Assembly: GCA_963781065.1 (NCBI GenBank)
Contig: CAWAET010000004.1
Span: 139,093 to 203,092 of the forward strand
Reading direction: 5' to 3'
Length of the DNA stretch: 64,000 nt
DNA from: Thermoanaerobaculia bacterium
GTDB lineage: Bacteria > Acidobacteriota > Thermoanaerobaculia > Multivoradales > JAHEKO01
Shown here: positions 6,937-64,000 of the stretch, piece after piece
Position numbering within the stretch: the first letter of the stretch is position 1
Layout of the letters: the number at the start of each line of letters is the position of its first letter
Made by a program: the position numbers and the translations under genes
The notes under the pieces: generated by a model
What the model saw: only the letters and a program-made list of their open reading frames with translations
Databases searched by the model: none
Told to the model about the DNA's origin: nothing

Positions 6937-6942
6937 AGAGCG

Positions 6943-21752: not shown

Positions 21753-22562
21753 TCAGACCACGATGTAGTCGCCCGGCGCGTAGTCGTGCTTGGCGTTCTC
21801 GATCAGGTCGGCCTCGGCGTCACGCCGCTTGAGCAGGCCGTCGAGGCCCTTGCCGACCCACAGCCGCTTCATCTGGCGCACCAGGTCGGCCATCTTCTCG
21901 AGGTCGCCGGCCTTGACGGCCGGGGCCAGGTCCGCCATCTCCTTGCGGCTCGCGCCGCTCTTGCTGGTCCCCCGGTTGTAGACCAGTGACAGCATCCCGC
22001 CCTGGGCATCCGCGGGCAGCTTGTCGACGCCGGGGAACGCTTTCAGGGTCATTTTCGCATAGCGGCTGAGCGTCTTCTCGTTGAACACGGACCGGGCTTC
22101 GTTGAAGGGCACTTTCAGACCCACGTCCGCCAGCCGCTTGGCGGCATCCCGCGCCGGGCTGCCCTTCAGACTGGCGACGCCTTTAAGATCCTGGACATAG
22201 GCATCGGCGATCCGGCCCCCCCAGTCCGCCTCGATCTGACTGGCGGAGTTGTAGCCGACGTCATACCCGATCCCGACCGTCACGCCGCTCTTTCCTCCCG
22301 GCCAGGTCGGCTTGGCGAGCCGCCGCGTGTAGTAGCTCTCGCTGATCACCTCGAACGCGACGATCATCTCGACCGCCTTCGTCGAGGGGGTCATCGAGTG
22401 CAGCGCGTCCTTGGTTCGCTTTGGCGCCCCCGCGCTGGACTCCTTGACCATGGAGAAGCCGAGCCGCAGCTCCGCGGCGGTCAGGGTCGCCGGCCCGATG
22501 ATCCCGTCGGCGGTGACACCCAACGCCTTCTGAATTCGCGCAATTCGTTCTTTCTGGTTCAT
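21753..22562 (-). CDS. peptidoglycan-binding-domain + T4-lysozyme-fold (GH24/pesticin-like) muramidase, no signal peptide
   Basis: 269 aa with an AAGGAGG SD. PG_binding_1-like IARIQKALGVTADGIIGPATL. Lysozyme-like AFEVISESYY...GVTVGIGYDVGY...LSLVYNRG...GLLKRRDAEADLI. Markedly lower GC than its neighbours. Confidence 0.75.
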   Translation of the reverse strand: MNQKERIARIQKALGVTADGIIGPATLTAAELRLGFSMVKESSAGAPKRTKDALHSMTPSTKAVEMIVAFEVISESYYTRRLAKPTWPGGKSGVTVGIGYDVGYNSASQIEADWGGRIADAYVQDLKGVASLKGSPARDAAKRLADVGLKVPFNEARSVFNEKTLSRYAKMTLKAFPGVDKLPADAQGGMLSLVYNRGTSKSGASRKEMADLAPAVKAGDLEKMADLVRQMKRLWVGKGLDGLLKRRDAEADLIENAKHDYAPGDYIVV

Positions 22563-22624
22563 GCCGTCCTCCTTGGGGTAGGTGGTGCCAGTCTCTTGCG
22601 AGATCTGCGGCCACCACCGAGCGA

Positions 22625-24907: not shown

Positions 24908-24962
24908 GTGCGGCCGGCCGCCTGTCTCGTGGCGCGGTCCGTGCCTGGGATATCGTCCTCGA

Positions 24963-32453: not shown

Positions 32454-32735
32454 ATGAAGCGCACGACGATCTTCATCGAGGAGCCGATGGAACGGGACCT
32501 CACCGCGCTGGCGGAGCAGGAGGGGCGCCCCAAGGCCGCTCTGGTGCGCGAGGCGCTCGGCGAGTATCTAGCTCGCCAGCAGCGGGGCGGGCGCCGGCTG
32601 GGCTTCGCCGCAATCGGCGGCAGCGGCCGCGGCGACACGGCGGAGCGCCACGAAGAGCTTCTCTGGCAGGAGGAAGAGGGAGCGGCGGCAAGGCCCGCCA
32701 TCCCCCCCACCGGCTACCTGCCGAGGAAGCGCTGA
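32454..32735 (+). CDS. vapB: ribbon-helix-helix (CopG/VapB-type) antitoxin
   Basis: From ATG 32454: MKRTTIFIEEPMERDLTALAEQEGRPKAALVREALGEYL is a typical RHH N-terminus. The stop overlaps the vapC ATG (ATGA). Confidence 0.8.
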   Translation: MKRTTIFIEEPMERDLTALAEQEGRPKAALVREALGEYLARQQRGGRRLGFAAIGGSGRGDTAERHEELLWQEEEGAAARPAIPPTGYLPRKR

Positions 32736-33142
32736 TGCCGCTTTTGGTCGACACCGGTCCGCTCTACGCCCTGGCGGACGTCGACGACGACTGGCACGTG
32801 CGGGCGGCCGAGCTCCTGCTGCGGACGCGCGAGACCCTGCTCGTGCCGGTGACCGTGCTCGCGGAAGTGACCCACCTGCTCAACCTTCGCCTGGGCGCGG
32901 CTGCCGAAGGGCGCTTCGTCGCCTCGCTGGCGGCCGGCGAGCTGACGATCGAGCCGCTCTTCCGGGCCGACCTCGAGCGCGCGGCCGAGCTCCTCGCGGC
33001 CTACCCCGACCTCGGGTTCATCGACTGCACCGTCGTGGCGATGGCCGAGCGGCTGCGGCTGCGGTCGCTCGTCACCACCGATCGGCGCCACTTCTCGGCG
33101 GTGCGGCCGCGGCATGTCGAGGGGTTCGAGCTGTTGCCGTAG
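32735..33142 (+). CDS. vapC: PIN-domain ribonuclease toxin
   Basis: 135 aa: MPLLVDTGPLYAL (Asp6), ...VTVLAEV..., ...GFIDCTVVAMAE..., ...VTTDRRHF. This is the acidic tetrad pattern of VapC. Confidence 0.85.
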   Translation: MPLLVDTGPLYALADVDDDWHVRAAELLLRTRETLLVPVTVLAEVTHLLNLRLGAAAEGRFVASLAAGELTIEPLFRADLERAAELLAAYPDLGFIDCTVVAMAERLRLRSLVTTDRRHFSAVRPRHVEGFELLP

Positions 33143-42325: not shown

Positions 42326-43468
42326 ATGGATTTCGCATGGAGCGCTGATCGACTCGAGCTGCGGCGTGGCGCCGTGGAGTTCGCCTCGCGCCGGCTGGCC
42401 GAGGGGACGATCGAGCGCGACCGCGAGGGCCTCTTCCCGCGCCCGCTCTGGGATGCCTGCGCCGAGTTCGGGCTGCAGGGGATGCTGGTGCCGGAGCGCT
42501 GGGGCGGCGGCGGCCACGACCTGCTCTCGGCCGTCGCCATCATGGAGGGGGTCGGCTACGGCGCGCGCGACAACGGCATCGTCTTCTCGGTCGCCTCCCA
42601 CGCCGCCTCCTGCGAGGGCCCGGTGGCGGCCTTTGGCAGCGCGGAGCAGCGAGACGAGTGGCTGCCGCGGCTGGCCGACGGCTCGGCGATCGGCGCCACC
42701 GGCATCACCGAGCCCGAGTCGGGCTCGGACGCCCTGGGGCTGGCGACGGCCGCCGTCGCCAGCGGCGACGGCTGGGTTCTCGACGGCTCCAAGACCTTCG
42801 TCACCAACGCGCCGGTGGCGGACGTGTTCGTCATCTACGCGCGCACCGGCGGCACCGGGTTCTCGGGCCTGACCTGCTTCCTGGTGCCGCGCGACACCGA
42901 GGGGCTGACGATCGGGCCGCCGATGGAGAAGATGGGGCTGCGCACCAGCCCGATCTCGCAGCTCTACCTCGAGCGGTGCCGGGTGCCCGCCGCCGCCGTG
43001 GTGGGCGGGGTCGGCTCCGGGGCGATGGTCTTCAACCAGACGATGGACGTCGAGCGGCTGCTGGTGATGGCGCCGGCGATCGGCGTCATGGAACGGCTGC
43101 TCGAGCGCTGCGTCGAGCACGCCCGGCAGCGCACCACGGGCGCGGTGCCGATCGGCAAGCACCAGTCGATCTCGCACCGCATCGCCGACATGGAACTGGC
43201 GCTCGAAGCCTCCCGGCTGCTGCTCTACCGGGCCGCCTGGCTGCGGGCGCGCCGCGGCAGCGCGACCCGGGAGTCCGCCATGGCCAAGCTCGCCGTCAGC
43301 GAGGCCTACGTCGACTGCTGTCGCAGCGCCATCCAGATCTTCGGCGGCTACGGCTACATGGTCGACTACGAGCTCGAGCGCGAGCTGCGCGACGCGCTCG
43401 CCACGACCCTCTACGTGGGCACCTCCGAGATCCAGCGCAACCTGATCGCCGGACTGCGAGGACTGTGA
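42326..43468 (+). CDS. acyl-CoA / acyl-carrier-protein dehydrogenase family flavoprotein
   Basis: 380 aa: GITEPESGSDA, KTFVTNA, QIFGGYGY, and a C-terminal catalytic-Glu context YVGTSEIQRNLI. The stop overlaps the next ATG (TGATG). Confidence 0.85.
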   Translation: MDFAWSADRLELRRGAVEFASRRLAEGTIERDREGLFPRPLWDACAEFGLQGMLVPERWGGGGHDLLSAVAIMEGVGYGARDNGIVFSVASHAASCEGPVAAFGSAEQRDEWLPRLADGSAIGATGITEPESGSDALGLATAAVASGDGWVLDGSKTFVTNAPVADVFVIYARTGGTGFSGLTCFLVPRDTEGLTIGPPMEKMGLRTSPISQLYLERCRVPAAAVVGGVGSGAMVFNQTMDVERLLVMAPAIGVMERLLERCVEHARQRTTGAVPIGKHQSISHRIADMELALEASRLLLYRAAWLRARRGSATRESAMAKLAVSEAYVDCCRSAIQIFGGYGYMVDYELERELRDALATTLYVGTSEIQRNLIAGLRGL

Positions 43469-44658
43469 TGAAGAAAGGCTGGATCAGCCTCGTCCTGCTG
43501 CTCACCGCCTTCGGGTCAACCGCGGCACAGGCCCACCGGCTCGGCGACAGCTATCTCTATCTGCAGATCTACGAGGACTCCGTCACCGGGCGCTTCGAGA
43601 TCGCGCTGTCGGACCTCAACCCGGCCCTGGGCCTGAGCGGCACCGAGCGGGAGATCACGCCGGAGAACCTCGACGACAGGATCGGCTTCCTGCGCCAGTA
43701 CTACCTCGAGCACGTCTCCATCGCCGACGATCGCGGGCCCTTGTCGATCGAGTTCACCGGCTACGACCTGCTCAACGCGCAGGGCGGCTTCTTGCGACTG
43801 CCGTTCGCCCTCGGCGGCCGCGACGAGGTGCCCGAGAGCCTGACCTTCGACTACTCGGTGCTGTTCGACGAAGAGCCGGACCACCGCGGCTTCCTCATCG
43901 TCGAGCACAACTGGGCCACCGGCACCTTCGCCAACGAGAGCGGCATCTCCCTGGTGTTCAGCCCGGCGTCACGCCGCCAGGAGTTCGATCTGACCTCCTC
44001 CGGCCGGCTGCGCGGCTTTCTGGCGGTCGTCGGGCTCGGTGCCGAGCACCTGCTGCTGGGAGTCGATCACGTCATGTTCCTGCTGGCGCTGCTGCTGCCG
44101 GTGGCGCTGCGACGCGAGGCGGGGCGCTGGCAGCCGGTCGAGCGCTTCCGGCCGGCGCTGGGCCACGCCGTGACCATTGCGACGGCCTTCCTGGTCGCGC
44201 ACACCGTCGCCCTCAGCCTGGCCGCGCTGGACCTGGTCCGCCTGCCGGAAGCGCTGGTGGAGACGGCGATCGCCGCCTCCACCACGCTGGCGGCGGTCCA
44301 CCTCCTGCGGCCGATCTTCCGCCGGCACCTCTGGTGGATCGTCTTCGGCCTCAGCCTGTTCCACGGCTTCGGCTTTGCCGCCGGGCTCGAGGACCTGGGC
44401 GTTCTCGAGCACCATATGGGCCTTTCGATCCTGGCCTTCAACCTGGGAGCAGAGGTCGGCCAGATCGCCCTCGTGGCGCTGCTGACGCCGGTGCTGTTCC
44501 TGATCCGCCGGCGGCGGCTCTACTCGCGGCTGCTGCTGCCGGTGGCGGCGGTGGGGATGATCCTGGTCTCCGGGGTGTGGGTCATCGAGCGGGCATTCGG
44601 CGTCGACATCCCGCTGCGCGAGCTGCTGCCGGTCGCCGTCCAGAGGGTGCTGCCGTGA
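43468..44658 (+). CDS. HupE/UreJ-like membrane protein with N-terminal periplasmic domain
   Basis: Signal peptide ..AFGSTAAQA|HRLGDSY gives a mature N-terminal His. The C-terminal 6-TM region has GAEHLLLGVDHVMFLLALL and FHGFGFA. Translationally coupled on both sides. Confidence 0.7.
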   Translation: MKKGWISLVLLLTAFGSTAAQAHRLGDSYLYLQIYEDSVTGRFEIALSDLNPALGLSGTEREITPENLDDRIGFLRQYYLEHVSIADDRGPLSIEFTGYDLLNAQGGFLRLPFALGGRDEVPESLTFDYSVLFDEEPDHRGFLIVEHNWATGTFANESGISLVFSPASRRQEFDLTSSGRLRGFLAVVGLGAEHLLLGVDHVMFLLALLLPVALRREAGRWQPVERFRPALGHAVTIATAFLVAHTVALSLAALDLVRLPEALVETAIAASTTLAAVHLLRPIFRRHLWWIVFGLSLFHGFGFAAGLEDLGVLEHHMGLSILAFNLGAEVGQIALVALLTPVLFLIRRRRLYSRLLLPVAAVGMILVSGVWVIERAFGVDIPLRELLPVAVQRVLP

Positions 44659-46277
44659 CGACCCGGGGGCGCGGGCCCGCCCTGCTGCACCAGTTGCTCG
44701 CGCGGGCGGCCGAGCGCCGCCCCGAGGCGATGGCGATCCGCGGCGACGGCGAGGGCCTCACCTACGAACAGCTCGCCCGCCGCGCCAACGGCCTGGCCCG
44801 GGTGCTGCTCGACACCGGCCTCGAGCGGCGGGCCCGGGTGGCGGTGCTGCTGGGCCGGGGCCTCGAGGTGCCGGTGGCCTTCTACGGCGCGCTGGCCGCG
44901 GGCGGCGCCCTGGTACCGATCGACCCGAAGTCCCCGGCCGAGCAGGTCATCCGCATCGTCCGCGCGACCGGCGCCACTCATCTCGTCTCGCAGCCGGCAA
45001 AGCGGGAACTGGTTCGCGCGACGCTCGCAGCCTGCCCGGAGGTGTCGCGGGTGATCGGTCTCGAGCCCGACGACGAGCTGCCGTCGGCTTCGGTGCCATG
45101 GTCGGTCGTGGATGCGGAGGCCGCCGACTCGCCGCCGGCGGTGGCGACGATCGCTCTCGACCCCGCCTACATCCTCCACACCTCGGGGTCGACCGGCATA
45201 CCCAAGCTGATCCTGCACACTCACGCGAGCGCCACGAGCTTCGTCGACTGGGCGGTTGCGGAGTACGGCCTGCGGCCCGAGGACCGGCTGAGCAACCACT
45301 CCTCGCACCACACCTGCTTCGCCACCTTCGACTACTACGCCGCCGCCGCCGCCGGCGCCGCCACCGTCCTGCTGACCCCGGCGGCGCTGATGATGCCGGG
45401 CTCGCTGTCGGCGCTGCTCGAGCGGCAGCGGGTCTCGGTCTGGTACTCGGTGCCCACGGCGCTGGTCCACCTCTCGCTGCGCGGCGATCTCGAGGCCAGG
45501 GACCTGAGCTCGATCCGCTGGGTGCTGTTCGCCGGCGAGACCTTTCCCGGCAAGCATCTGCGGCGGATCATGCGGCAGCTGCCCGCGGCCCGTTTCAGCC
45601 ACGTCTACGGCTCGACCGAGGTCAACGTCTGCACCTACCACCACCTCGGCGGGCCGGCCGAGCTGGTCGAGCCGCTGCCGATCGGCCGGGCCTGCTCGAC
45701 GTCGAGCACCCTGGTGGTGGACGACGAGCTCCAGCCGGTGCCCAACGGCGAGGTCGGCGAGCTTCTGGTGCGGGGATCGACCGTCATGTCGGGCTACTGG
45801 GGCGACTCCGCGGCCAGCCGCCGCGCCCTTCTCCGGCGGCCGGCGGCCGGCGGCTTCGAGGAGGTCTACTTTCGCACCGGCGACCGGGTGAAGGCGCTCG
45901 CGAGCGGCGACCTGACCTTCGTCGCCCGGGCCGACTTCCAGGTCAAGGTGCGCGGCCACCGCGTCGAGCTGGAGGAGGTCGAGACCGCCCTGCTCTCCCT
46001 CGACCCGGTAGAGGAGGCCGCCGTCTTCACGGTGGAGGACGGCGAGGGAAGCCTCGCTATGCGTGCCGCGGTGGTGCTCGCGGCCGGCGAGGAGATGTCG
46101 GCGGCCGAGCTACGCGCCGGGCTGGCGAAGATCCTCCCCGCCCACGCGGTACCGGCCGAGATCGCCGCCCGGCCGGGCCTGCCGCGCACGCCGACCGGCA
46201 AGATCGACCGCGCGGCCCTGGGTGGGCGGCCCCTTGGTGGGCGACTGAGGCAGGAGGAGGGTGGCAATGGGATCTGA
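44655..46277 (+). CDS. stand-alone adenylation enzyme (ANL superfamily, amino-acid/aryl-acid activating)
   Basis: GTG 44655 overlaps the upstream stop (GTGA). Motifs ILHTSGSTGIPK, YGSTE, FRTGD, VKVRGHRVELEEVE, PTGKIDRAAL. No C or T domain. Confidence 0.85.
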   Translation: MTTRGRGPALLHQLLARAAERRPEAMAIRGDGEGLTYEQLARRANGLARVLLDTGLERRARVAVLLGRGLEVPVAFYGALAAGGALVPIDPKSPAEQVIRIVRATGATHLVSQPAKRELVRATLAACPEVSRVIGLEPDDELPSASVPWSVVDAEAADSPPAVATIALDPAYILHTSGSTGIPKLILHTHASATSFVDWAVAEYGLRPEDRLSNHSSHHTCFATFDYYAAAAAGAATVLLTPAALMMPGSLSALLERQRVSVWYSVPTALVHLSLRGDLEARDLSSIRWVLFAGETFPGKHLRRIMRQLPAARFSHVYGSTEVNVCTYHHLGGPAELVEPLPIGRACSTSSTLVVDDELQPVPNGEVGELLVRGSTVMSGYWGDSAASRRALLRRPAAGGFEEVYFRTGDRVKALASGDLTFVARADFQVKVRGHRVELEEVETALLSLDPVEEAAVFTVEDGEGSLAMRAAVVLAAGEEMSAAELRAGLAKILPAHAVPAEIAARPGLPRTPTGKIDRAALGGRPLGGRLRQEEGGNGI

Positions 46278-46548
46278 GAGCGGACCGGTCGGCCCGGTCC
46301 GCCAGATCGAGGATCGGCTCACCGAGTTCATCCAGCGCGAGCTGCTGGGCCCGGGTGCGATGATCGATCGCCAGGCCGACCTGCTGTCCGGCGAGCTGCT
46401 CGACTCGGTGGCGGTCCTGCGCCTGGCGGCCTTCGTCGAGGAGGAGCTCGGGGTGGCCATGCAGCCGGCCGACTTCGTGGTCGAGAACTTCCAGAACGTA
46501 GCGGTGCTCGCCGAGTTCGTTCGCCGGTCGAGCGCCCCGTCGGGCTGA
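46261..46548 (+). CDS. stand-alone acyl/peptidyl carrier protein
   Basis: 95 aa; GELLDSVAVLRLAAFVEEE gives the Ser attachment context. Overlaps the 3' end of the A gene. The stop lies 2 nt before the NRPS ATG. Confidence 0.75.
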   Translation: MAMGSESGPVGPVRQIEDRLTEFIQRELLGPGAMIDRQADLLSGELLDSVAVLRLAAFVEEELGVAMQPADFVVENFQNVAVLAEFVRRSSAPSG

Positions 46549-46550
46549 CG

Positions 46551-50801
<4,251 letters not shown>

Positions 50802-50910
50802 CTGGAGCGGCCTGACCGGAGCCGCCGGCGCCACGGCCACCACCCGGCGGCTTCGCCAGCCTGATTGTTCACCAGGGCGCTTGCAGCCGCGGCCTGGCGA
50901 AGAATGCCGG

Positions 50911-51768
50911 CTAGCCGGCGCCCGTTATCGTCCCCGCCTGGGGCCCAGCCTCGTCTCCCCGCCGCGCCGCGCGGCGCCGGAGCATGTGCGCCAGCACGCC
51001 GAGCCGCTGCGCCATGCCGAGCTCGCGAAACGTGGCGATCCGCGAGTTAGTCCGGGTGTAGAGCGACAGCCGCCGCGCCCGGGCACGGGCGGTCAGAAAC
51101 TCCATGTGAGTCACCCTCATCGACGGCCGGTAGGCCGGCCGGAGGTCCGGCCGGCGCGCCGCCAACCGCTGAACGAGCTCGCTGTCCGCCGCCCGCGGCC
51201 ACTCCTTGAACAAGCCCAGCTCGGCGAACACCGCGGTCCGCACCGCCATGTTGTTGGCGTAGCCGAAGTGGTGCGCCGGCGGGCAGCGGTCGACGACGTA
51301 CTCGGCCTTGGCGTCCTCGTAGGCGCCGAGCAGCCTGAGCGCCAGCGACGCCGCCGCCGGGTAGCGGACCCGGCCGAGCAGGATGGCGACGGCTGGATCC
51401 CGCAGGCCCTCTCGGATCGACCGCAGCCAGTCGCGCTCGACCACACAGTCGGCGTCGGTCAGGGCGACGATCGCCGCCCGCGCCCGACGGATGGCGGCGT
51501 TGCGCGCCGCGTAGGCGCCGGGGGTCCGCTCCTCGAGAAGCGTCAGGCCGTCGTAGCGCGCGAGCACCGCGGCCGAAGCGTCGCTCGACCCGTTGTCGAC
51601 GAAGAGAATCTCGTACGCACCACCGACGTCCTCCTGGGCCAGCAGCGACTCGACACAGGCGGCGATGTGGCGCTCGCTGTTGAAGAACGGCACGACGACC
51701 GAGATCACGGGCGCCGAGACCTCGGGGCGCTCGCCGGCCGGCTCGGCGAAGCCCGGCCGGCTAGCCAT
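50911..51768 (-). CDS. family 2 glycosyltransferase
   Basis: ISVVVPFFNSERHIAACVESLL...FVDNGSSD...TDADCV (GT-A DxD context). The start overlaps the sulfotransferase stop by 8 nt. Confidence 0.85.
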   Translation of the reverse strand: MASRPGFAEPAGERPEVSAPVISVVVPFFNSERHIAACVESLLAQEDVGGAYEILFVDNGSSDASAAVLARYDGLTLLEERTPGAYAARNAAIRRARAAIVALTDADCVVERDWLRSIREGLRDPAVAILLGRVRYPAAASLALRLLGAYEDAKAEYVVDRCPPAHHFGYANNMAVRTAVFAELGLFKEWPRAADSELVQRLAARRPDLRPAYRPSMRVTHMEFLTARARARRLSLYTRTNSRIATFRELGMAQRLGVLAHMLRRRAARRGDEAGPQAGTITGAG

Positions 51769-52747
51769 CGGCGCCGCCTGTCCCGGACGTCGTCGCGGCC
51801 CCAGTCCCGGCGCCAGTCCCGGCCCCAGTCCTGGCCCCCGTGCCGGCCCCCGTGCTGGCCACCCACGCGCGCAGCCGGTCGTACGCTTCGCGACGCAGCG
51901 ACCGGCTCACCCAGAGCCGCTGCTCTTCGCTCAGCGTCCGGTGCGCGCTCCGAGAGCGACGGATGCCGCGGCCGACGTCCCCTTTCCAGGCCTCCTCGCC
52001 CGGGGCGACGAGACCGCCGGCGGCCTCGGCATAGCGCTCGAGCACCCGCGGCTGCCAGTCGAGGCCGAGCCCGGCAAAGAGCCGTTCCAGCACCGGGCCG
52101 GGCGAGGCGGTGACCTCCTCGTAGACCACGAACAGATCGTTCGGCCCCCCGGCCCGGCGCAGCGAGAACTCGACGTCTTCGTTCCAGCGCCGGACGCAGG
52201 TGCCGAGATCGTAGGGCCTTTGCCAGTTGCGGGACGCGCGGTGGAGCGATGCCACGACCTCCAGCCCGTCCCGGATCACGTGCACGAAGCGCATCCCCGA
52301 CCCGGGCCCGCCCAGCCGCTCGAGGAACGGGATGTAGCGCAGGTGGCGCGGGGTTTTTTCGATCCAGCTCGTCTTGCCCCGTCGTAGCGTCAGCTCGTCG
52401 AGCACCGCCAGCAGCCGCCGCGCCGCCGTCCGGGTCCGCAGCGGCAGCAGCGGCCGCGCCCAGCCGGCCGACCGGCCGCGCGCCGCGAGCCACTCGGCGG
52501 ACGCCGTCGGCAGCTCGCCGTTCTCGGCCAGGAAGTCGCCCAGCCACGGCACCGGATCGCGGGTCAGGAGCGGCCGCGACGAGCGCGGCAGCAGCCGGAA
52601 GTGCCGGGCGAACAGGTGGCTCTCGGTGAACGAGGTCGTCGCGCCGTGCGCCGCCAGCAGGCTCTGCACGAGGGTGGTGCCGGAGCGGGGGGCGCCGACG
52701 ACAAAGATTCGTCGATCGATATCGGCGCTGAGGCGAGACCCGGTCAC
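51761..52747 (-). CDS. sulfotransferase with (TGAG)n low-complexity C-terminus
   Basis: GTG 52747 overlaps the upstream stop (GTGA). PAPS 5'-PSB loop FVVGAPRSGTTLV and 3'-PB-like VIRDGLEVVASL. The track ORF 51761..53467 is over-extended. Confidence 0.8.
   Translation of the reverse strand: MTGSRLSADIDRRIFVVGAPRSGTTLVQSLLAAHGATTSFTESHLFARHFRLLPRSSRPLLTRDPVPWLGDFLAENGELPTASAEWLAARGRSAGWARPLLPLRTRTAARRLLAVLDELTLRRGKTSWIEKTPRHLRYIPFLERLGGPGSGMRFVHVIRDGLEVVASLHRASRNWQRPYDLGTCVRRWNEDVEFSLRRAGGPNDLFVVYEEVTASPGPVLERLFAGLGLDWQPRVLERYAEAAGGLVAPGEEAWKGDVGRGIRRSRSAHRTLSEEQRLWVSRSLRREAYDRLRAWVASTGAGTGARTGAGTGAGTGAATTSGTGGADG
51797..51856. repeat. 12-nt in-frame tandem repeat, 5 copies
   Basis: ggccccagtccc / ggcgccagtccc / ggccccagtcct / ggcccccgtgcc / ggcccccgtgct. 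Encodes ..TGAGTGARTGAGTGAGTGA.. on the minus strand. Confidence 0.8.
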
Positions 52748-53561
52748 CGCCCGGCGGCCTCCGCCGCGTTGTCCGCGACCCCGCCGGGCGTTGCCGCCAC
52801 GCCGTCCTTGGCGGCGACGAGGGTGAAGAACGGGCGCATCGAGGGCAGCAACCGCTCGGCCAGCCCAACCGGCCCACGGCCGTGGCCGCCGCGAAAGACG
52901 ACGGCCTCGATCCGGAAGCCGACACGCGAGAGGAACTCGGACACCTCTCGGGTCGTGTACTCCCGGACGTGTCCCATGTGGCCGAGGGTCTCGAGCTTCT
53001 CGTACTGGCGGTAGACCCCGCCCGAGACCGCGTATCCCCGGTTGTGGAGCAGCAGGTTCCGGAGGCCGCGAAACGACCGCAGGTTGGGCGTCGACAGCAG
53101 GATCGCGCCGCCCGGCGCGAGCACCCGGTGCGCCTCGCGCAGGGTGAAGATCGGGTCGATCCGCAGGTGCTCGAAGAGCTCGTTGAACAGCACGGCCTGG
53201 AACGACCCGGCGGCGAAGGGCACCGGCCCGGTCTCGACGTCGCAACGAGCGACGTCGAGACCCAGACGCTCGATCGCTCCGGCGAACCGCTCCGGGGCGA
53301 TATCCAGGGCGCTGACCCGGTAGCCGCGCTGGGTCAGGGCGGCGGTCAGCAGCAGCGGCACCGCCCCGTACTCGAGAATCCGGGCGCCGGCCGGCAGGTG
53401 ACGCTCGACAAGCCGCAGGTCGGCGGCGAGCCGCCGCCGGTGCTGGCGGGAGTAGTCGCGGCACCACGCCTCGAGCGCGGAGTCGTCCGGCCGGATCCGC
53501 GCCGCCACCCGGTCGATCAGAGCGAGGTTGGCGGCCGGCAGGCGGAACGGCTCGGCCTCCC

Positions 53562-53568
<7 letters not shown>
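52744..53568 (-). CDS. class I SAM-dependent methyltransferase-like protein
   Basis: GTG 53568 overlaps the NRPS stop by 7 nt. ARILEYGAVPLLLTAAL..VSALDI..FQAVLFNELFEHL..LAPGGAILLSTPN has the Methyltransf_11/23-like layout, with a degenerate motif I. Confidence 0.7.
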
Positions 53569-57605
<4,037 letters not shown>

Positions 57606-57746
57606 CAGGTCGGCCCGAACCCGGACCCGGGCTCGCGACGAGTCTAACCGCGACGGCCGCGACGATCGCGACGACCTCCCGGACGGCGCCGACGAGACGG
57701 CGCCGACGAAACGACCTGACCCGACAGCCAGTGCCATACTGCACCC

Positions 57747-58919
57747 GTGCGGCTCATCGAGGTGGAGACGTTCGGTCGCGGCGGGCTGATCCACTACACC
57801 TACAACCTGTGCCGAGCGCTGGCCGAGCGCGGCCACGAACTGACCCTGGTCACCGGCGCGGGTTACGAGCTCGAAGGGCTGGCCGAGCTGCCGGCCGGAG
57901 TGCGCCTGGTCAAGGCGATCGGCCGCTTCACGGCACGGCCGCGGCCCTCCTGGCCCGGCTTCGCCCTGCGGCTGGCCCGCCGGGCCGAGGCGGTGCTCGA
58001 CGCGTTCCGCGTCGCGGCCCTGGCCCGGCGGCTGCGGCCCGACGTCGTGCACCTGCACTGCACCAACTCGGTCGCTCTCGTCTACCTGGCCCTCTTCCGG
58101 CTGCTGGGTCTGCGGGTGGCGTACACCGCGCACGTCGTCAAGCCGCACGAGCCGATGCCGTTCGAGAACGTCGTCTACGGCTGGATCCACCGGCTCAGCC
58201 GGCTGGTGATCGCTCACTGCGAGGTGGACCGGCGACGACTCGTCGACGAGCTCGCCGTCGATCCGGCCCGGATCGTGGTGATCCCCCACGGCGAGTATGG
58301 CTTCTTCGAGCGCGGCCGCACCCTGCCGGAACGCGCGGCGGCGCGCGCCGAGCTGGGCCTCGAGCAACACGAGGAGGTGGCCCTCTTCTTCGGCTATATC
58401 CGCGAGTACAAGGGGCTCGACCTGCTGCTGGACGTCTGGCCGGCAGTCGTCGAGGCGCGGCCGCGAGCCCGCCTGGTGATCGCCGGCGATCCGGTACGGC
58501 TCCCGCCGGCCCGCCGCCAGGAGCTCGAGCGGCAGGCCGATCGGCTGGGCGCCGTCCACCGCTTCGCCTACGTCCCGTTCTCGGCGGTGCCGGGCTACTT
58601 CGCCGCGGCCGACGCGCTGGTCATGCCGTATCGCAGCCTCAGCCAGTCGGGCGTCCTCTACCTGGCCCTGTCCCTGGGCATGCCGGTCGTCGCCACCCGG
58701 GTCGGGGCGCTGCCCGAGGTGCTCAGCGACGGCGACAGCGCGCTGCTCGTGCCGCCGGAGTCGACCGCCGCCCTGACCGCTGCGGTGGTCCGGGTGCTGG
58801 GCGACCCCGGGCTGCGGGATCGCCTGGCGCGGGGCGGCCGGCGGGTCGCCCAACGCCACTCCTGGCCGGCCATCGCCGAGCGCACCGAGACCGCCCTCGC
58901 GCGACTGGCGGCAAGCTAG
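57747..58919 (+). CDS. family 4 (GT-B, group 1) glycosyltransferase
   Basis: GTG start. GGLIHYTYNLCRALAERGHELTLVT... and C-terminal ...SLSQSGVLYLALSLGMPVVATRVGALPEVL (E-x7-E region). Confidence 0.85.
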   Translation: MRLIEVETFGRGGLIHYTYNLCRALAERGHELTLVTGAGYELEGLAELPAGVRLVKAIGRFTARPRPSWPGFALRLARRAEAVLDAFRVAALARRLRPDVVHLHCTNSVALVYLALFRLLGLRVAYTAHVVKPHEPMPFENVVYGWIHRLSRLVIAHCEVDRRRLVDELAVDPARIVVIPHGEYGFFERGRTLPERAAARAELGLEQHEEVALFFGYIREYKGLDLLLDVWPAVVEARPRARLVIAGDPVRLPPARRQELERQADRLGAVHRFAYVPFSAVPGYFAAADALVMPYRSLSQSGVLYLALSLGMPVVATRVGALPEVLSDGDSALLVPPESTAALTAAVVRVLGDPGLRDRLARGGRRVAQRHSWPAIAERTETALARLAAS

Positions 58920-58946
58920 CCGGCCTGGCGGCGCTTCGGCGCGGGG

Positions 58947-60386
58947 TCAGCGACCGAGCAGCTGGAGCAGTCGTCGCTCGATCCCGGCCGGCCGCCCATC
59001 GCGTCGCCAGAGGGCGTACTGCACGCCGCAGAAGACGCCGCCACCGATCGCCGCCTTGGCCGCCAGCGACAGCCAGGGGACGAGGCCCAGGGGTAGCGTC
59101 GTGGCGACCGCCAGCACGGCGCCGACCATCGCGACCGTCGCCCACAGCGGGCGCCTGAGCTCGGCGACGATCTCGGCGAAGCGAATCCCGAGGGCCGTGC
59201 GCAGCATCCAGACATTGAGATACGAGTACAGGATCCCGGCGAGGACGATGCTGCCGATCGCGCCGACCAGGCCGAACACGGCGGTGCCGGCAACGAACAG
59301 CGGCACGTGGACCAGCGCGTAGAGCAGGCTGACCCGGAACAGCAACCGCGTCCGGCCGAGAGCCATCACGCAGGGCAGGGTCATCGACAGGGTGGCGCGC
59401 AGACCGAGGTAGGGCGTCAGGATCGTCAGCAGCGGGACGATCGTCGTCCACTGCTCGCCGATCGCCAGGGGCACGAAGTCGCCGGCCACCAGCGCGAAGC
59501 CACATCCGGCCGGCAAGCTCAGGCTGCCGAGCACGTTGATCGACTCGCGGGCCACCCGGCGCAGCCGTTCCGGGTCGGGCGCCAGCTCGCTGAAGGACGG
59601 GAAGAGGATCCGCTGCAGCGGGCTGATCAGCTCGCGAGTGGGCAGCGCGCCGATGCGCTGGGTCATGAAGTAGAGGCCGGCCTCGGCCACCCCCAGCAGG
59701 CGACCGACGATCAGCTTGTCGGTCTCCATCGACAGCGTGGTGACGACCGTGGTCAGCGACAGCCAGCCGCTGAAGCCGACGATCTCCCGCCACCGCGCCA
59801 GCGTCGGCCGCGGGCGATAGGGGCGCAGCAGATAGCTCAGGATCAGGCTGAGCAGCGAGCCGGTGAGCATGCCGAGCACCAGGGCCCAGTAGCTGCGCAG
59901 GGTAACCGCCACGACGATCGTCACGGCGAACGAGCCGAGCTTGGCGCCGAGCGTCAGGGCGGCCAGCTTGGAGTAGACGAGGTCGCGCTCGAAGGCGACG
60001 AACCGCGGGTTGGCGAGCCCGGTGAGGACCGGGCTCAGCGCCAGCGCCAGCAACACGTGCCCGATCCGGCCGTCGGTCATGAAGGGCGCGACCGACACCA
60101 TGACCAACGCCGCCACCAGGCCGCGCAGCGCCGACAGCGTCCAGGCGCTGTCGAAAAGCGACCGGCTCTCGTCGCGAATCCGGATCAGCGCCTTGGCGAC
60201 GTCGAAAGCGGCCAGCCCCTCGACGATGGTGACGAAGGAGGCGGCGATGGCGACCAGCCCGAAATCGTCCGGCGACAGGATGCGCGCCAGGACGAGGATG
60301 GCGATGAAGTCGAGCAGCCGCTCGGCCCAGCGGTAGGCGTACAGCCAACCGGCGCCGCGGGCGAATCGGCGGGCGGCCTCGGTCAC
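58947..60386 (-). CDS. MOP/Wzx-type polysaccharide (lipid-linked oligosaccharide) flippase
   Basis: GTG 60386 overlaps the upstream stop (GTGA). About 12-14 TM helices. LARILSPDDFGLVAIA, and an N-terminal basic segment typical of the Polysacc_synt family. Confidence 0.8.
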   Translation of the reverse strand: MTEAARRFARGAGWLYAYRWAERLLDFIAILVLARILSPDDFGLVAIAASFVTIVEGLAAFDVAKALIRIRDESRSLFDSAWTLSALRGLVAALVMVSVAPFMTDGRIGHVLLALALSPVLTGLANPRFVAFERDLVYSKLAALTLGAKLGSFAVTIVVAVTLRSYWALVLGMLTGSLLSLILSYLLRPYRPRPTLARWREIVGFSGWLSLTTVVTTLSMETDKLIVGRLLGVAEAGLYFMTQRIGALPTRELISPLQRILFPSFSELAPDPERLRRVARESINVLGSLSLPAGCGFALVAGDFVPLAIGEQWTTIVPLLTILTPYLGLRATLSMTLPCVMALGRTRLLFRVSLLYALVHVPLFVAGTAVFGLVGAIGSIVLAGILYSYLNVWMLRTALGIRFAEIVAELRRPLWATVAMVGAVLAVATTLPLGLVPWLSLAAKAAIGGGVFCGVQYALWRRDGRPAGIERRLLQLLGR

Positions 60387-61789
60387 GCGCCGGCACCCGT
60401 CGGCCGCGGCCGGACCCGGTCGGCAGGCGCGGTCGCCGCGCGGAGCCGGCCGCCGAGCAGTTCCTCGACCGCGCGCTCGGCGACACGCTGGCGGGCGTAG
60501 GCCAGATAGGAGACGCGCAGACGATCGACCCTCTCGGCGAAACGCGGCTCGCCCAGCAGGCGATCGAGATGGCGGCGAATGGCCGCGGTGGCGTCGGCCC
60601 GCTCGCCGGCGATCCCCAAGCCGTGATGCACCACCCGAGCGGTGGTGCCCGCCATGTCGGTCTCGAAGCCGCAGTAGACCAGCATCGGAACGCCGGCGAG
60701 GACGCACTCGTCGACCGTGCCGATGCCGCCGTGGGTCACCGCGACGTCGGCGTGGCGCAGCAGCTCGAGCTGCGGCACCCAGGCGAAGACGTGGGCACGC
60801 TCCGGCAACCGGCCCAGCCTTTCGGGCTTCAGCCGGTCGCTCAGACTGACCACCAGCTCCCAGTCGGGGCGTTCGGCGACGACTCCCAGGAGACGCCGCA
60901 GCAGCTCGACGTCGGCGGAGAGCACCGACCCGAAACCGGCGTAGATCAGCGTCCGCTCGCCCCCGCCGCGACGGCAGCGCGCCAGGATCGATTGCAGCCG
61001 CTGCCGCTCCGGCAACGGCAGCGGCCGGTCGATCCGCGATTCGAGCACCATCGGGCCGACGTAGACGACCCGCTCGGGCGCCCGGTGGGGGAGCTCGAAC
61101 TCGGCGGCGTGCAGGCTCAGCACCGGCAGCCGGCGGTAGGTGAAGGGCATCAGCCACTGCCCGTCATCGGTCTCGCACCGGAAGTCGAAGCCGCTCTGCC
61201 GCGCCAGGCAGCGCAGGATCGCCAGGCGGTCGCAGCCGAGGCGCCGGAGGCGATGAGACCAGGCCCTGAGCCGCTTGCGCAGCCGCAGGGCGAGCCAGAG
61301 AAGCGCGATCCCGAGCCGCGACCCCCGCCAGCCGATACCCGGCCGCACCAGGCAGTGCGGCGGCGGCAGGCCGGGCCGGCGCCAGATCGAGACGAAGGTG
61401 TTGAGCAGCGCCACCGGTGCCCCGACGCCCGCGGCGGTGATCACGTACTCGTGCATCTCGCCGTTGACCAGCACCAGGTCCGCTCCGGCATCACGCACGG
61501 CGCGGGCGAACCCGTCGACCGCCAGCGCCGCCGTCGCCCGGTCTCGGCGGCGGCGCAGGTCCAAGAGCCGGTCGAGCGGGCCGCGGGCGGCGTCGGCCAC
61601 GAGAAACTCCTCGTAGCGGCTCGGCGCGAGCGGCAGGAACTCGAGGCGGTGATGCTCGGCCAGCTCCCTGGCGTCGGGCAGACCCGCGTAGATGACCCGG
61701 TGCCCGGCGGCCGCCAGGCGCCGGGCCAGCTCGACGCTGGCATAGACCACGCTGGGCAGGCCGTTCGTCACGCAGAGGATGGTGGCCAC
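60383..61789 (-). CDS. GT1-family UDP-glycosyltransferase (MGT/macrolide-GT-like, GT28 C-terminal domain)
   Basis: GTG 61789. N-terminal ILCVTNGLPSVVYASVELARRLAAAGHRV. The C-terminal region contains WVPQLELLRHADVAVTHGGIGTVDECVLAGVPMLV. Confidence 0.8.
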   Translation of the reverse strand: MATILCVTNGLPSVVYASVELARRLAAAGHRVIYAGLPDARELAEHHRLEFLPLAPSRYEEFLVADAARGPLDRLLDLRRRRDRATAALAVDGFARAVRDAGADLVLVNGEMHEYVITAAGVGAPVALLNTFVSIWRRPGLPPPHCLVRPGIGWRGSRLGIALLWLALRLRKRLRAWSHRLRRLGCDRLAILRCLARQSGFDFRCETDDGQWLMPFTYRRLPVLSLHAAEFELPHRAPERVVYVGPMVLESRIDRPLPLPERQRLQSILARCRRGGGERTLIYAGFGSVLSADVELLRRLLGVVAERPDWELVVSLSDRLKPERLGRLPERAHVFAWVPQLELLRHADVAVTHGGIGTVDECVLAGVPMLVYCGFETDMAGTTARVVHHGLGIAGERADATAAIRRHLDRLLGEPRFAERVDRLRVSYLAYARQRVAERAVEELLGGRLRAATAPADRVRPRPTGAGA

Positions 61790-61982
61790 GAGGGATCTTC
61801 GCCCGGATCGCCTAGTGTTCCGTGCGGGAAGTTCGCTGCCCGGGCCTGTTAGTCATCCGCGTTGCTGGCAAGGCGCGCCGACGAAGGACTAGCGGGCCTA
61901 ATCCGAGGAGGCGGAACGCGGCCAGCGACGTGGAGGGCCGCAGGACTGGGTAGTGAACTTCACGCACGGGACACTAGCGTCC

Positions 61983-62750
61983 TCAGTCCGACGGGTAGCC
62001 GAGCCGCTCGACCAGCCCCGGATGGCTGGCCTCGAACGCCCGTCGCACCCGCGGGGTGAAATGACTGCGCCACTGGCCGGAGGACGGGTCACGGATGTGC
62101 GGGTCGCCCGATCGCCGGCGCATCGAGTAGCGGCGGGCGAACCAGTTGCCCAGCAGCCGCTCGACGGGCGACAGCCCATAGAAGTCGAACAGCCTCCGGA
62201 AGACCGCCGCCTCGTCGGCCAGGATGTCTTCATAACGGAAGGTGATGATGTCCGGATGCTCGGCCGGCCAGCGCGCCATCGACTCGAGATGCCGGCGGCG
62301 GAACTCCAGCTCGGCCAGCAGGCCGTCCTCTTCCGGCAGCGATCTCAGGTAGTCCGCGAAGGAGCCCCCCGCGGCACGCAGCCCCGCGGGCACGACCCCG
62401 TTGGCGAAGTACCAGTCGTCAGCGGTCGGTGATTCGATCCTGACCCAGGCCTCGGCGCCACGCCGATGGTAGAAGTAGCCCGACACGACCAGGTCGCGGG
62501 GATCGCGGATGAAGCGCGAGATCCGGAACCGACCGAGCCGGTCGAGGTCGAGGTCCCGATTGTTGATCGACGCGACGCGGAGTCGCCGAAAACCGGCGTA
62601 GAAGTCGTCGAGATGGCTGTTGAAGTGGCGATAGCCGGCGGTCCACGGCAGACAGCGGTTGAAGACGCCGTCCATGACACGGCGGAAGTAGACGGTCAGG
62701 CACTTGTGGTACGAGCAGTGGATCCGATGGCAATCGCGCGACCCGGGCAT
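61983..62750 (-). CDS. sulfotransferase family protein
   Basis: 255 aa; FIRDPRDLVVSGYFYH (3'-PB motif RDPRD..VS) and a C-terminal GQWRSHF. Confidence 0.75.
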   Translation of the reverse strand: MPGSRDCHRIHCSYHKCLTVYFRRVMDGVFNRCLPWTAGYRHFNSHLDDFYAGFRRLRVASINNRDLDLDRLGRFRISRFIRDPRDLVVSGYFYHRRGAEAWVRIESPTADDWYFANGVVPAGLRAAGGSFADYLRSLPEEDGLLAELEFRRRHLESMARWPAEHPDIITFRYEDILADEAAVFRRLFDFYGLSPVERLLGNWFARRYSMRRRSGDPHIRDPSSGQWRSHFTPRVRRAFEASHPGLVERLGYPSD

Positions 62751-63031
62751 CGAACTTCATGCTACCGCCGAAGGCGGCGGGCGGCGGGACTCAGGGTTGT
62801 CTGCGCTCGCCTCCCCGCCGAGATCGCCTGCTTCGAGCCCGGAACCAAAGGCGGCGCCCGACCGAACACGTTGAGGCTGTCGAGTTCAATTCCGGTGGGT
62901 CCACCCCTACCGGCCGAGCCTTCCAAAGTCCGCCGATTCGCAACTGCTGCCACGACACTTCCGCCAACTGGACCCCGGCTCACTCAATCCGCTAGCCTCC
63001 CGGCGCCGGCCAAGCGACCCGCGGTATCCCA

Positions 63032-64000
63032 GTGACCTCCATCTCCGACAGTGAACGCACGGTGGTCGTGGGCGCCGGCCCGGCCGGGCTGACCGCCGCC
63101 CTCGAGCTGGGCAAGCGCGGCCTCGGCGGCGTGGTCTACGAGGCGGACGAGGTCGTGGGCGGCATCTCCCGCAGCGTCGTCTTCGAGGGCTGCCGCCTGG
63201 ACATCGGCGGCCACCGCTTCTTCACCAAGGTGCCCGAGGTCGAGGCCCTGTGGCACGAGATCCTCGGCGACGACCTGCTGGTGCGGCAGAGGATGTCGCG
63301 CATCTTCTACCGCGGCACCTTCTTCGACTACCCGCTCAAACCGGTCAACGCGCTGCGCGGGCTGGGCCTGGTCGAGGCGGCGCGGGTGATGATGAGCTAT
63401 CTGCACTCGCAGCTTTTCCCCATCGCCAACGAGGAGACCTTCGACGCCTGGGTGAGCAACCGGTTCGGGCGGCGGCTGTTCGAGATCTTCTTCGAGACCT
63501 ACACCGAGAAGGTCTGGGGCATGCCGTGCAGGGAGATCAGTGCCGCCTGGGCCGCGCAGCGGATCAAGAACCTCGACCTGTTGACCGCTATCAAGAACGC
63601 GTTCCTGGGCAACCGGGGCGACAACGGCGAGGTTGTCACCAGCCTCATCGACAGCTTCTACTACCCCCGTCTCGGGCCCGGCATGATGTGGGAGCGGTGC
63701 AGCGAGCTGGCGGCGTCGATGGGCGTCGAGACCGAGCTGCGCTCGCGCGTCGTCGGGGTTCGGCACGACGGGCATCGGGTCACCGCCGCCGACGTCGAAG
63801 GCCCGGACGGCACGGTCCGGCGCGAGCCGTGCGGCGCGCTCATCTCATCGATGCCGATCGGCGGCCTGGTCCGCGCCATGCGGCCCGCCGCGCCCCGGGA
63901 GGTTCTGGCGGCGGCCGACGGCCTGCGCTACCGGGACTTCCTCATCGTCGCGCTGATCGTCGACCGCGAGCGGCTCTTCCCCGACAACTGGATCTACGTC
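63032..64000 (+). CDS. FAD/NAD(P)-binding oxidoreductase (amine-oxidase / UDP-galactopyranose-mutase-like), C-terminally truncated by the window
   Basis: Not in the track because it is edge-truncated. My translation from GTG 63032 gives VTSISDSERTVVVGAGPAGLTAALELGKRGLGGVVYEADEVVGGISRS...GGHRFFTK...YTEKVWG. Confidence 0.75.
   Translation, partial: MTSISDSERTVVVGAGPAGLTAALELGKRGLGGVVYEADEVVGGISRSVVFEGCRLDIGGHRFFTKVPEVEALWHEILGDDLLVRQRMSRIFYRGTFFDYPLKPVNALRGLGLVEAARVMMSYLHSQLFPIANEETFDAWVSNRFGRRLFEIFFETYTEKVWGMPCREISAAWAAQRIKNLDLLTAIKNAFLGNRGDNGEVVTSLIDSFYYPRLGPGMMWERCSELAASMGVETELRSRVVGVRHDGHRVTAADVEGPDGTVRREPCGALISSMPIGGLVRAMRPAAPREVLAAADGLRYRDFLIVALIVDRERLFPDNWIYV

Follow-up and report, generated by a model that had tools for sequence, protein, structure and literature searches.

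Do nonribosomal peptide synthetase (NRPS) genes that lie interleaved with genes for glycosyltransferases (GTs), sulfotransferases and a Wzx-type flippase encode one product, and what kind of product might it be? This question is raised by positions 42326-64000 of a 64,000-nucleotide stretch of DNA from a Thermoanaerobaculia bacterium of the phylum Acidobacteriota (assembly GCA_963781065.1, contig CAWAET010000004.1, positions 139,093 to 203,092), hereafter called the window. An original prediction, made from the letters and their open reading frames (ORFs), had read the region as an NRPS line for three building blocks, coupled to three GTs, two sulfotransferases, a methyltransferase, a Wzx flippase and a flavin-dependent oxidoreductase. 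We called genes from the codon-position GC frame plot and annotated them with Pfam and NCBIfam. All genes that had been named on the two strands were found in their places, with two start sites corrected, and the Pfam E-values of the listed genes are far beyond chance (Table 1). Taken as a whole, the locus is best explained, with slightly better than even confidence, as one cluster for a three-residue peptide decorated with sugars, sulfate and methyl groups, a probable metallophore. In addition to what had been predicted, the analysis indicates an AMDH domain inserted into the Asn adenylation domain, Asn and His as incorporated residues, and a Cu/Ni-type permease encoded within the NRPS operon.

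The coding arrangement couples the genes tightly. On the plus strand, the genes of an ACAD-fold (acyl-CoA dehydrogenase) flavoprotein and of the permease overlap by 1 nt, those of the stand-alone adenylation (A) enzyme and the carrier protein overlap by 11 nt, and a gap of 2 nt separates the carrier protein gene from that of module 2, which comprises condensation (C), interrupted adenylation (A*) and thiolation (T) domains. On the minus strand, the gene of the termination module, C-A-T followed by a thioesterase (TE), overlaps the methyltransferase gene by 7 nt, which in turn overlaps a Sulfotransfer_3-type sulfotransferase (ST3) gene by 4 nt, and this one overlaps GT2 by 8 nt; GT1 and Wzx overlap by 4 nt.

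The same interleaving is conserved elsewhere. With the module-2 insert domain as the query, a scan of 185,579 species genomes gave more than 590 loci, of which 80 were fetched (loci and contigs are cited below by their survey numbers). The window's order recurs in approximately 20 genome loci of this fetched set and in approximately 36 metagenome contigs. It consists of ACAD-permease-A-carrier protein-C-A*-T, a convergent GT2-(ST-methyltransferase)-C-A-T-TE block, GT4, Wzx-GT1 on the opposite strand, the second sulfotransferase gene (ST1, in parentheses in the shared order, as is the ST-methyltransferase pair) and the gene of an NAD(P)/FAD flavoprotein. Two sub-variants of the window-type cluster exist, with and without the pair of ST3 and methyltransferase genes (the ST3 gene is missing from L001, L008, L017 and L024). 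For the converse test, metagenome contigs were scanned with the GT4 protein, which revealed 36 homologues at 54-71% identity, with the next best at 36% or less. Among the close homologues with sufficient left flank, the His-specific NRPS module was divergently adjacent in all but L117, where a methyltransferase gene abuts GT4, and the contigs extending rightward carry Wzx-GT1-ST1-flavoprotein. No close GT4 homologue away from an NRPS was found in this metagenome scan. Because close GT4 homologues adjoin the His module and the Wzx-GT1-ST1-flavoprotein set occurs with them, the glycan-type genes appear to be dedicated to the NRPS. With high confidence, we thus consider the NRPS and the glycan-type genes to form one unit, as originally proposed; the outcome that would have spoken for two loci, namely that they are never inherited together, is the reverse of what the synteny indicates. 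The NRPS core itself, unaccompanied by the GT2/GT4/Wzx set, is distributed widely over many phyla.

An Rfam scan of the whole window returned no riboswitch at threshold (0 hits), and neither the promoter/terminator scan nor a search for inverted repeats between genes provided usable information on regulation, with no recognisable promoter or operator. The convergent genes of module 2 and GT2 are 109 nt apart, and this gap contains a 12-nt, GC-rich inverted repeat of 92% complementarity (window 50817-50855), which may be a bidirectional terminator but lacks a T-run.

The Pfam domains agree with the assembly logic originally proposed, i.e. a loading A enzyme and carrier protein, one elongation module and one termination module with a TE, corresponding to three building blocks. 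The catalytic motifs are intact in the C domains (HHLICDA in module 2, HHILADE in the TE module), in the T domains (GGTS in module 2, and the T-domain serines) and in the TE (GYSFG). Stachelhaus codes were extracted for the window as well as for every fetched locus. The code of module 2, DLTK[IV]GEV.K (DLTKVGEV.K in the window), is an Asn code and was present in 76 of 76 modules. The TE module has the code DS[AV][CL]IAEVW-K in the loci and DSALIAEVWK in the window; the latter is tabulated as a His or beta-OH-His code (PMC12283262). The pair of Asn* and His codes is invariant in the 80 loci, which span more than 8 phyla, with bins in Acidobacteriota, Planctomycetota, Verrucomicrobiota, Cyanobacteria, Bacteroidota, Chloroflexota, Gemmatimonadota, Acidimicrobiia and Proteobacteria. 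Judged from codes and domains, the peptide core is likely to consist of an oxidised proline-like residue, cyanoalanine or isoasparagine, and His.

Some members of the family depart from this layout. Two metagenome contigs (L083 and L084) have a Ser-specific A-T-C loading region (code DVWHLSLIE) in place of the ACAD/A/carrier protein starter; it precedes the same Asn(AMDH)-His modules, and a classical HupE_UreJ gene (PF04955) takes the place of the PF13795 gene. In both contigs, a 564-aa protein devoid of annotation is encoded after the short HupE_UreJ gene. Cluster versions that are non-glycosylated come with a conserved protein of approximately 550 aa to which no Pfam family matches (L034:16921-18564, minus strand; homologues in 12 loci, for example L056, L043, L070 and L022).

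Approximately 360 aa with a Cys-rich N-terminus and an SGGKDS PP-loop interrupt the A domain of module 2. The insert is located in the C-terminal A subdomain, between the AMP-binding_C match at aa 883-905 and the A10 lysine at approximately aa 1297. By BLASTP, it shares 47% identity over 337 aa, i.e. full length, with the characterised AMDH domain of CysH (E 5e-121; reference sequence from the supplement of PMC7966384), and the PP-loop is invariant in 15 aligned homologues. The best NCBIfam match is the N-acetyl sugar amidotransferase WbuX (1.7e-28, below cut-off). An AlphaFold2 model of the insert (pLDDT 84.8) has as its top Foldseek match 8WEX, an N-acetyl sugar amidotransferase of Legionella (E 1e-11), followed by TtuA, YcfA, LarE and asparagine synthetase, in agreement with a PP-loop fold. 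A search of PDB sequences with the insert profile matched only the flanking A and T parts. On the strength of this homology, A* is an Asn adenylation domain that carries an inserted AMDH domain of the cystobactamid/albicidin type. The AMDH domain of CysH converts carrier-bound L-Asn to beta-cyano-L-alanine (-18 Da by intact-protein mass spectrometry) or to isoasparagine, an activity demonstrated by this method and by deletion of the domain (PMC7966384); the domain has also been described in AlbIV of the albicidin pathway (PMC12283262). Numerous orphan AMDH homologues have been noted (PMC7966384), and the one listed from Tropicimonas sediminicola is locus L072 of this survey. A survey of interrupted A domains (PMC8341866) apparently does not describe this type of insert, as far as a term search of its text reveals.

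The likeness to CysH and AlbIV (PMC7966384; PMC12283262) extends to the size of the insert (approximately 345-360 aa), its position in the C-terminal part of an Asn A domain, the SGGKD PP-loop and the carrier-bound substrate. The context differs: CysH and AlbIV belong to a stand-alone A-T shuttle that feeds a p-aminobenzoate oligoamide antibiotic, whereas here the AMDH domain is part of a full C-A-T elongation module in a three-residue line, and unlike the cystobactamid cluster the locus has no CysJ/CysQ-type hydroxylase or O-methyltransferase pair. Two other functions were considered for the insert. A thioamide-forming, TtuA/CtaC-like domain had been suggested by the Cys pattern and by weak ThiI/QueC hits, and was dropped after the 47% match to the CysH AMDH domain. 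Of an amidine-forming amidotransferase, for which WbuX and 8WEX are the nearest non-NRPS relatives, only a common fold ancestry was retained, because the characterised homologue dehydrates or isomerises Asn. The AMDH domains share an invariant Cys pattern (CxxC...CxxC at the N-terminus, CxxC at insert residues 155/158, and Cys280), which resembles the layout of zinc-finger and Fe-S ligands in PP-loop enzymes of the TtuA type, which rank second among the structural matches; a dark brown colour has been reported for purified CysH. By analogy, the AMDH domain may carry a metal or Fe-S cofactor.

In the window, the stand-alone A enzyme, the free carrier protein and the ACAD-fold flavoprotein are encoded in one operon, as in the prolyl cassettes AnaB/AnaC/AnaD (anatoxin-a), PltE/F/L, RedW/M/O and PigA/I/G. 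The best PDB match of the flavoprotein, and hence its best solved relative, is AnaB, a prolyl-acyl carrier protein dehydrogenase (4irn, 1.5e-105; 356 bits versus 298 bits for butyryl-CoA dehydrogenase), and its best NCBIfam families are the prolyl-peptidyl carrier protein dehydrogenases RedW and PigA. The stand-alone A enzyme matches the Pro ligase PltF (6o6e, 2e-72). Starter cassettes of the family fall into two clades, both of which are joined to the same downstream genes. One clade, found in most phyla, displays the code DMFYLGVQC, retains Asp235 (HFDMSTF) and has an ACAD that scores 421 bits against AnaB; an ornithine cyclodeaminase gene, which could supply Pro, is present in 23 related loci of this clade, often adjacent. 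These features make a good case for Pro as the starter in the Asp235 clade. The window code, CFFYLAVVC-K, resembles that of these relatives with Asp235 replaced by Cys, and Cys at this position is shared by the window and its 17 closest relatives (HHTCFATF; HHTCFATFDYY in the alignment of L003-L030). The replacement may reflect a change of substrate, or a different mode of Pro binding. We therefore describe the window starter as proline-like, an assignment that is not secure because Cys replaces Asp235 and no cyclodeaminase accompanies it. Unlike the known prolyl cassettes, the cassette of the window clade combines this Cys with a permease gene between ACAD and A and with an ACAD score below the equivalog cut-offs, and what follows downstream is an NRPS rather than a polyketide synthase (PKS) or pyrrole tailoring.

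In 50 of 82 loci, the permease gene is flanked by those of the ACAD and the A enzyme. Its product, originally termed HupE-like, consists of a signal peptide (...STAAQA|HRLG), a mature N-terminal His, a periplasmic domain of approximately 165 aa and the PF13795 membrane domain (aa 188-348). His23 is invariant in 29 homologues and at least 90% conserved in 50, and the motifs HX5DH (H194..D200-H201) and FHG298-300 are invariant in 29-50 homologues. The top Foldseek match of an AlphaFold2 model (pLDDT 80.9) is 9GCE, the Cu-bound Ang-1 domain (E 6.8e-5; target-normalised TM 0.59), and the Zn-binding ZrgA and PA4063 are further matches. Judged from sequence and model, the HupE-like protein is an Ang-1-like domain with an N-terminal His fused to a HupE/UreJ-2 permease of predicted Cu/Ni type. 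The combination of Ang-1 and HupE/UreJ-2 has been named the anglerase architecture; it features a mono-histidine brace, and metal capture for the attached permease has been proposed (PMC12537917). Metal binding was shown for RbAng-1a only, with a Kd of 74 nM for Cu(II) and 220 nM for Ni(II), and NRPS neighbours of anglerases were not reported (PMC12537917). The protein of this cluster shares with Ang-1 (PMC12537917; 9GCE) the signal peptide, the conserved His1, a beta-sandwich periplasmic domain, a linker and PF13795 with His/Asp motifs, but differs from it in that the identity in the structural alignment is 13% and in that its gene forms part of an NRPS operon in many phyla. Orthologous TonB-dependent receptors are encoded next to the cluster in 10 loci, with 33-47% identity between Bacteroidota, Verrucomicrobiota and Acidobacteriota; in L004 and L024, the receptor gene is located directly upstream of ACAD. 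One related locus also carries an ABC transporter and a phosphopantetheinyl transferase.

Consistent with tailoring of a small molecule, the best NCBIfam matches of all three GTs are small-molecule GT families: the mycofactocin GT MftF for GT2 (87 bits), which also matches exopolysaccharide (EPS) GT families, MshA for GT4, and the macrolide GT family MGT for GT1 (5e-27). The methyltransferase weakly matches MftM, below cut-off. The prediction of two sulfotransferases dependent on 3'-phosphoadenosine-5'-phosphosulfate (PAPS) holds for the Sulfotransfer_3 protein, in which a 5'-phosphosulfate-binding (5'-PSB)-like loop, APRSGTT, is present. It does not carry over fully to the second, which is the weakest call of the cluster: only the C-terminal two thirds of the Sulfotransfer_1 model match (9.5e-9), and no recognisable 5'-PSB loop was seen in this protein. 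Orthologues of it at 72-78% identity occupy the same position in L089-L118. In cyanobacterial and alphaproteobacterial versions of the cluster, too, the NRPS is followed by a GT1 homologue (30-40% identity), and in L054 a Stf0-type sulfotransferase gene comes next; a GT1 with a Stf0-type sulfotransferase after the NRPS is seen in a cyanobacterial version. Because such genes recur after the NRPS in other versions, glycosylation and sulfation appear to be recurrent in the family. The Wzx-like protein, with approximately 11 hydrophobic segments, has conserved counterparts in 16 genome loci and among NCBIfam families scores best against the WzxC-type MOP flippase PRK10459 (178 bits, cut-off 273). 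Neither a priming phosphoglycosyltransferase nor Wzy, chain-length or outer-membrane export genes were found among the called genes at 42326-64000, and the same polysaccharide-assembly genes were absent from the annotated flanks of L001, L085, L108 and L118. Together, these matches suggest that the product is a glycosylated and sulfated small molecule, which we hold to be the better-supported outcome, with modest confidence.

The flavoprotein at the right end exceeds the NCBIfam cut-off for PRK07208.1-4 (433 bits, cut-off 389) and accompanies the cluster in four different arrangements (L001, L010, L012 and L085); in L085, its gene is divergent from that of ACAD. The family is very broad and widespread outside NRPS contexts, and some sources label members as UDP-galactopyranose mutase (UGM). 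A role as a peptide amine oxidase is unsupported, given this breadth, the mutase labels and the pairing with a GT2 in relatives; a function in sugar-nucleotide metabolism seems at least as likely as peptide oxidation. L085 further contains an RVT_1 reverse-transcriptase gene (13889-15217) among its glycan-type genes, probably part of a group II intron or retron.

The pathway can be pictured as follows. The stand-alone A enzyme would load a proline-like acid onto the free carrier protein, and the AnaB/RedW-like flavoprotein would oxidise the bound starter to an acyl group of pyrroline or pyrrole type. The next residue, added by the C-A(AMDH)-T module, would be Asn, whose side chain the AMDH domain with ATP would turn into that of beta-cyanoalanine, or which it would isomerise to isoasparagine, and the divergently encoded C-A-T-TE module would add His and release the three-residue product. 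GT1, GT4, GT2, the two sulfotransferases and the methyltransferase, encoded beside the His module or presumably co-transcribed with it, would probably attach a methylated, sulfated sugar chain to the peptide, and the MOP/Wzx-like protein would probably export the product. Once secreted, we infer, an X-X-His peptide with four nitrogen donors could chelate metal in the manner of an amino-terminal Cu- and Ni-binding (ATCUN) motif, and the metal or its complex would be taken back up via the permease. A role as a metallophore is the most likely function because a Cu/Ni-type permease is encoded in the operon, TonB-dependent receptors travel with the cluster, and His occupies position 3 of a peptide rich in nitrogen donors; we place its probability a little short of even. 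The fully specified version is more tentative and, on balance, rather doubtful: a new metallophore class, in which a chelator of oxidised proline, cyanoalanine or isoasparagine, and His would bind Cu(II)/Ni(II), possibly Co, carry a sulfated, methylated oligosaccharide, and be recaptured by the anglerase permease and, in relatives, also by a dedicated TonB-dependent receptor.

Several observations weigh against this metallophore model or parts of it. The ACAD remains below the equivalog cut-offs of NCBIfam (RedW, 374.6 bits against 650; PigA, 359.7 against 500), and Pro is not secure in a clade that has Cys for the amino-binding Asp235 and no ornithine cyclodeaminase nearby. The sequence does not distinguish dehydration from isomerisation by the AMDH domain. 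All GT matches fall below the curated NCBIfam cut-offs, and a Wzx-type protein normally flips a lipid-linked glycan and is not a small-molecule exporter. In the window, there is no TonB-dependent receptor, recognisable metal-responsive regulator or riboswitch, and the right end of the cluster lies outside it. In the literature searched, no product was found for any family member, and no paper links the family to a compound. Part of this list would fit a bioactive antibiotic or signalling product of glycopeptide-like type, for which the HupE/UreJ-2 and MOP proteins would serve only as exporters or in self-resistance: the only characterised AMDH pathways, those of albicidin and cystobactamid, yield antibiotics, GT1 belongs to a macrolide GT family often involved in antibiotic tailoring or inactivation, and the window offers neither receptor nor metal regulator. 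We nevertheless consider an antibiotic or signal unlikely, as the permease displays the conserved N-terminal His and the HX5DH/FHG motifs of an architecture known to bind Cu/Ni, orthologous TonB-dependent receptors, which are uptake devices, accompany the cluster in three phyla, and the conserved X-Asn*-His core offers many nitrogen donors.

The peptidyl-decorated surface glycan that had been put forward originally is disfavoured. According to this proposal, the GT, sulfotransferase and Wzx genes would make a lipid-linked sulfated surface oligosaccharide onto which the NRPS TE transfers the tripeptide. It draws on the resemblance to Wzx/Wzy loci for O-antigen or EPS, which likewise group a Wzx-like MOP protein with several GTs and with sulfotransferases, on the Polysacc_synt_3 match (1.5e-65) with a WzxC-type MOP flippase as the best NCBIfam family, on three, probably four, GTs together with the UGM-related flavoprotein and a second GT2 in relatives, and on the EPS matches of GT2. 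Unlike in such loci, however, no priming phosphoglycosyltransferase, Wzy, Wzz or Wza is found among the called genes, relatives lack the assembly genes in their annotated flanks as well, and the NRPS termination module shares an operon with GT2; moreover, the NRPS core occurs widely without glycan genes, sometimes with only GT1 and a sulfotransferase, and the GTs best match those acting on small molecules (MftF, MshA, macrolide GT). We regard it as improbable. Less probable by far is a chance juxtaposition of functionally unrelated NRPS and glycan loci. Some of the closest relatives, for example L004, L005 and L020, do carry the starter/Asn cassette with no GT2/GT4/Wzx within 10 kb, and the flavoprotein family is very widespread beyond NRPS contexts, but the His module is encoded inside the glycan block, where it overlaps the methyltransferase gene by 7 nt, and the arrangement is kept in more than 50 contigs, with no close GT4 homologue found apart from an NRPS. 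Synteny thus largely refutes the two-loci reading, and a single cluster for a decorated tripeptide, with metal capture as its most likely purpose, is the reading retained.

Table 1. Features of the cluster (positions in the window).
Feature	Position	Strand	Support
ACAD-fold flavoprotein	42326-43468	+	Pfam ACAD 1.7e-43, all three ACAD domains
HupE/UreJ-2 permease with signal peptide and Ang-1-like domain	43468-44658	+	PF13795 HupE_UreJ_2 6e-34
Stand-alone A enzyme (TTG start uncertain)	44694-46277	+	AMP-binding 1.5e-76
Stand-alone carrier protein	46267-46548	+	PP-binding 3.6e-5
NRPS module C-A(AMDH)-T, predicted Asn-specific	46551-50801	+	Pfam C, A, T
AMDH (PP-loop) insert in Asn A domain	49263-50345	+	CysH AMDH homology
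GT2, last gene of minus-strand NRPS operon	50911-51768	-	Glycos_transf_2 2.7e-24
PAPS-type sulfotransferase	51761-52747	-	Sulfotransfer_3 PF13469 3.9e-22
SAM-dependent methyltransferase	52744-53568	-	Methyltransf_23/11/25
NRPS termination module C-A-T-TE, predicted His-specific	53562-57605	-	Pfam C, A, T, TE
GT4, divergent from His module	57747-58919	+	Glyco_trans_1_4 / Glyco_transf_4
Wzx-like MOP-family flippase/exporter	58947-60386	-	Polysacc_synt_3 1.5e-65
GT1, macrolide/EryCIII/MGT-like	60383-61789	-	EryCIII-like_C and UDPGT
Second, divergent sulfotransferase-fold protein	61983-62750	-	Sulfotransfer_1 9.5e-9
Amine-oxidase-type NAD(P)/FAD flavoprotein, cut by window end	63068-64000	+	Amino_oxidase and NAD_binding_8

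The window has a G+C content of approximately 72%, and long spurious ORFs are frequent as a result. One of these, the minus-strand ORF 53562-58859 (1765 aa), was rejected as a high-GC artefact; the true C-A-T-TE gene starts with the ATG at 57605 and encodes 1347 aa. The start codon of GT4 is the GTG at 57747. The ACAD gene forms the left border of the cluster. Upstream of 42326, TerC is followed by unrelated chromosomal genes, among them those of an alpha-2-macroglobulin with PBP1C, an Omp85 protein, ProC and an amidase; the closely related locus L003 is 90% identical to the window in the TerC gene and 82% in ACAD. Both the gene composition and the nearest relatives indicate a Thermoanaerobaculia-like genome of the Acidobacteriota. 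At the other end, the cluster probably continues beyond base 64000, as judged from relatives in which the flavoprotein measures approximately 620 aa and a second GT2 comes after it.

Further features were observed outside the cluster. The alpha-2-macroglobulin gene and the PBP1C-type transglycosylase/transpeptidase gene (window 6664-14953; MG domains to approximately 12350, PBP1C at 12395-14953) form the usual A2M-PbpC pair, and a 2730-aa ORF spanning both is a high-GC artefact. At 23864-27752, a GT-C/PMT_2-like membrane protein precedes a protein of 929 aa that combines PP-binding, AMP-binding and PlsC-type acyltransferase domains. The latter protein, which has a carrier domain of its own, resembles an Aas-like fusion for acyl activation and acyl transfer; a distance of 15 kb separates it from the cluster, with which it is not co-conserved. 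A pesticin/phage-lysozyme-like protein adjoins an LprI-type lysozyme-inhibitor protein at 21753-23641 (minus strand), which may be a toxin-immunity pair, and a small ORF followed by a PIN-domain protein at 32454-33142 (plus strand) resembles a VapBC-type toxin-antitoxin pair. In L085, the related cluster likewise has a PIN/PhdYeFM pair at its flank.

The combination of NRPS genes with GT1-type GTs, methyltransferases and PAPS sulfotransferases is familiar from bleomycin, mycobacterial glycopeptidolipids and sulfated glycopeptide antibiotics, and in bleomycin Asn-derived and His units form part of a metal-binding head that bears sugars. Unlike products of the bleomycin type, the one predicted here has three residues only, no lipid or PKS part, and AMDH chemistry on Asn, and unlike their clusters the locus includes a Wzx-type MOP protein and a HupE/UreJ-2 permease. 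The original claim that no characterised cluster combines these genes is consistent with the literature searched. The parts are all of known kinds (NRPS, AMDH, prolyl-carrier protein dehydrogenase cassette, anglerase, GTs, sulfotransferases), their assembly constitutes an orphan family, and the version of this family extended by GTs, sulfotransferases and the MOP protein is new.

Gross et al. (2021) found many AMDH-domain homologues that had no linked metabolite (PMC7966384). The present survey indicates that a large share of these orphans represents one conserved starter-Asn*-His pathway that crosses phyla, and that this pathway is physically linked to a family of metal-capture permeases described only in 2025 and there unlinked to small molecules (PMC12537917). 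If the metallophore role were wrong, the cluster would still be a well-defined target for heterologous expression with unusual nitrile or isoasparagine chemistry. If it is true, the locus would provide a biosynthetic handle on a new chelator of copper/nickel type, link NRPS chemistry to anglerase uptake, and yield a rare sulfated, glycosylated metallophore from the poorly cultured Acidobacteriota. The core cassette is present in at least 590 genomes of Acidobacteriota, Planctomycetota, Verrucomicrobiota, Cyanobacteria, Bacteroidota, Chloroflexota, Gemmatimonadota and Proteobacteria, many of them from marine and sediment samples, and such a metallophore could then explain part of the uncharacterised strong Cu/Ni/Co-binding ligands in these environments.

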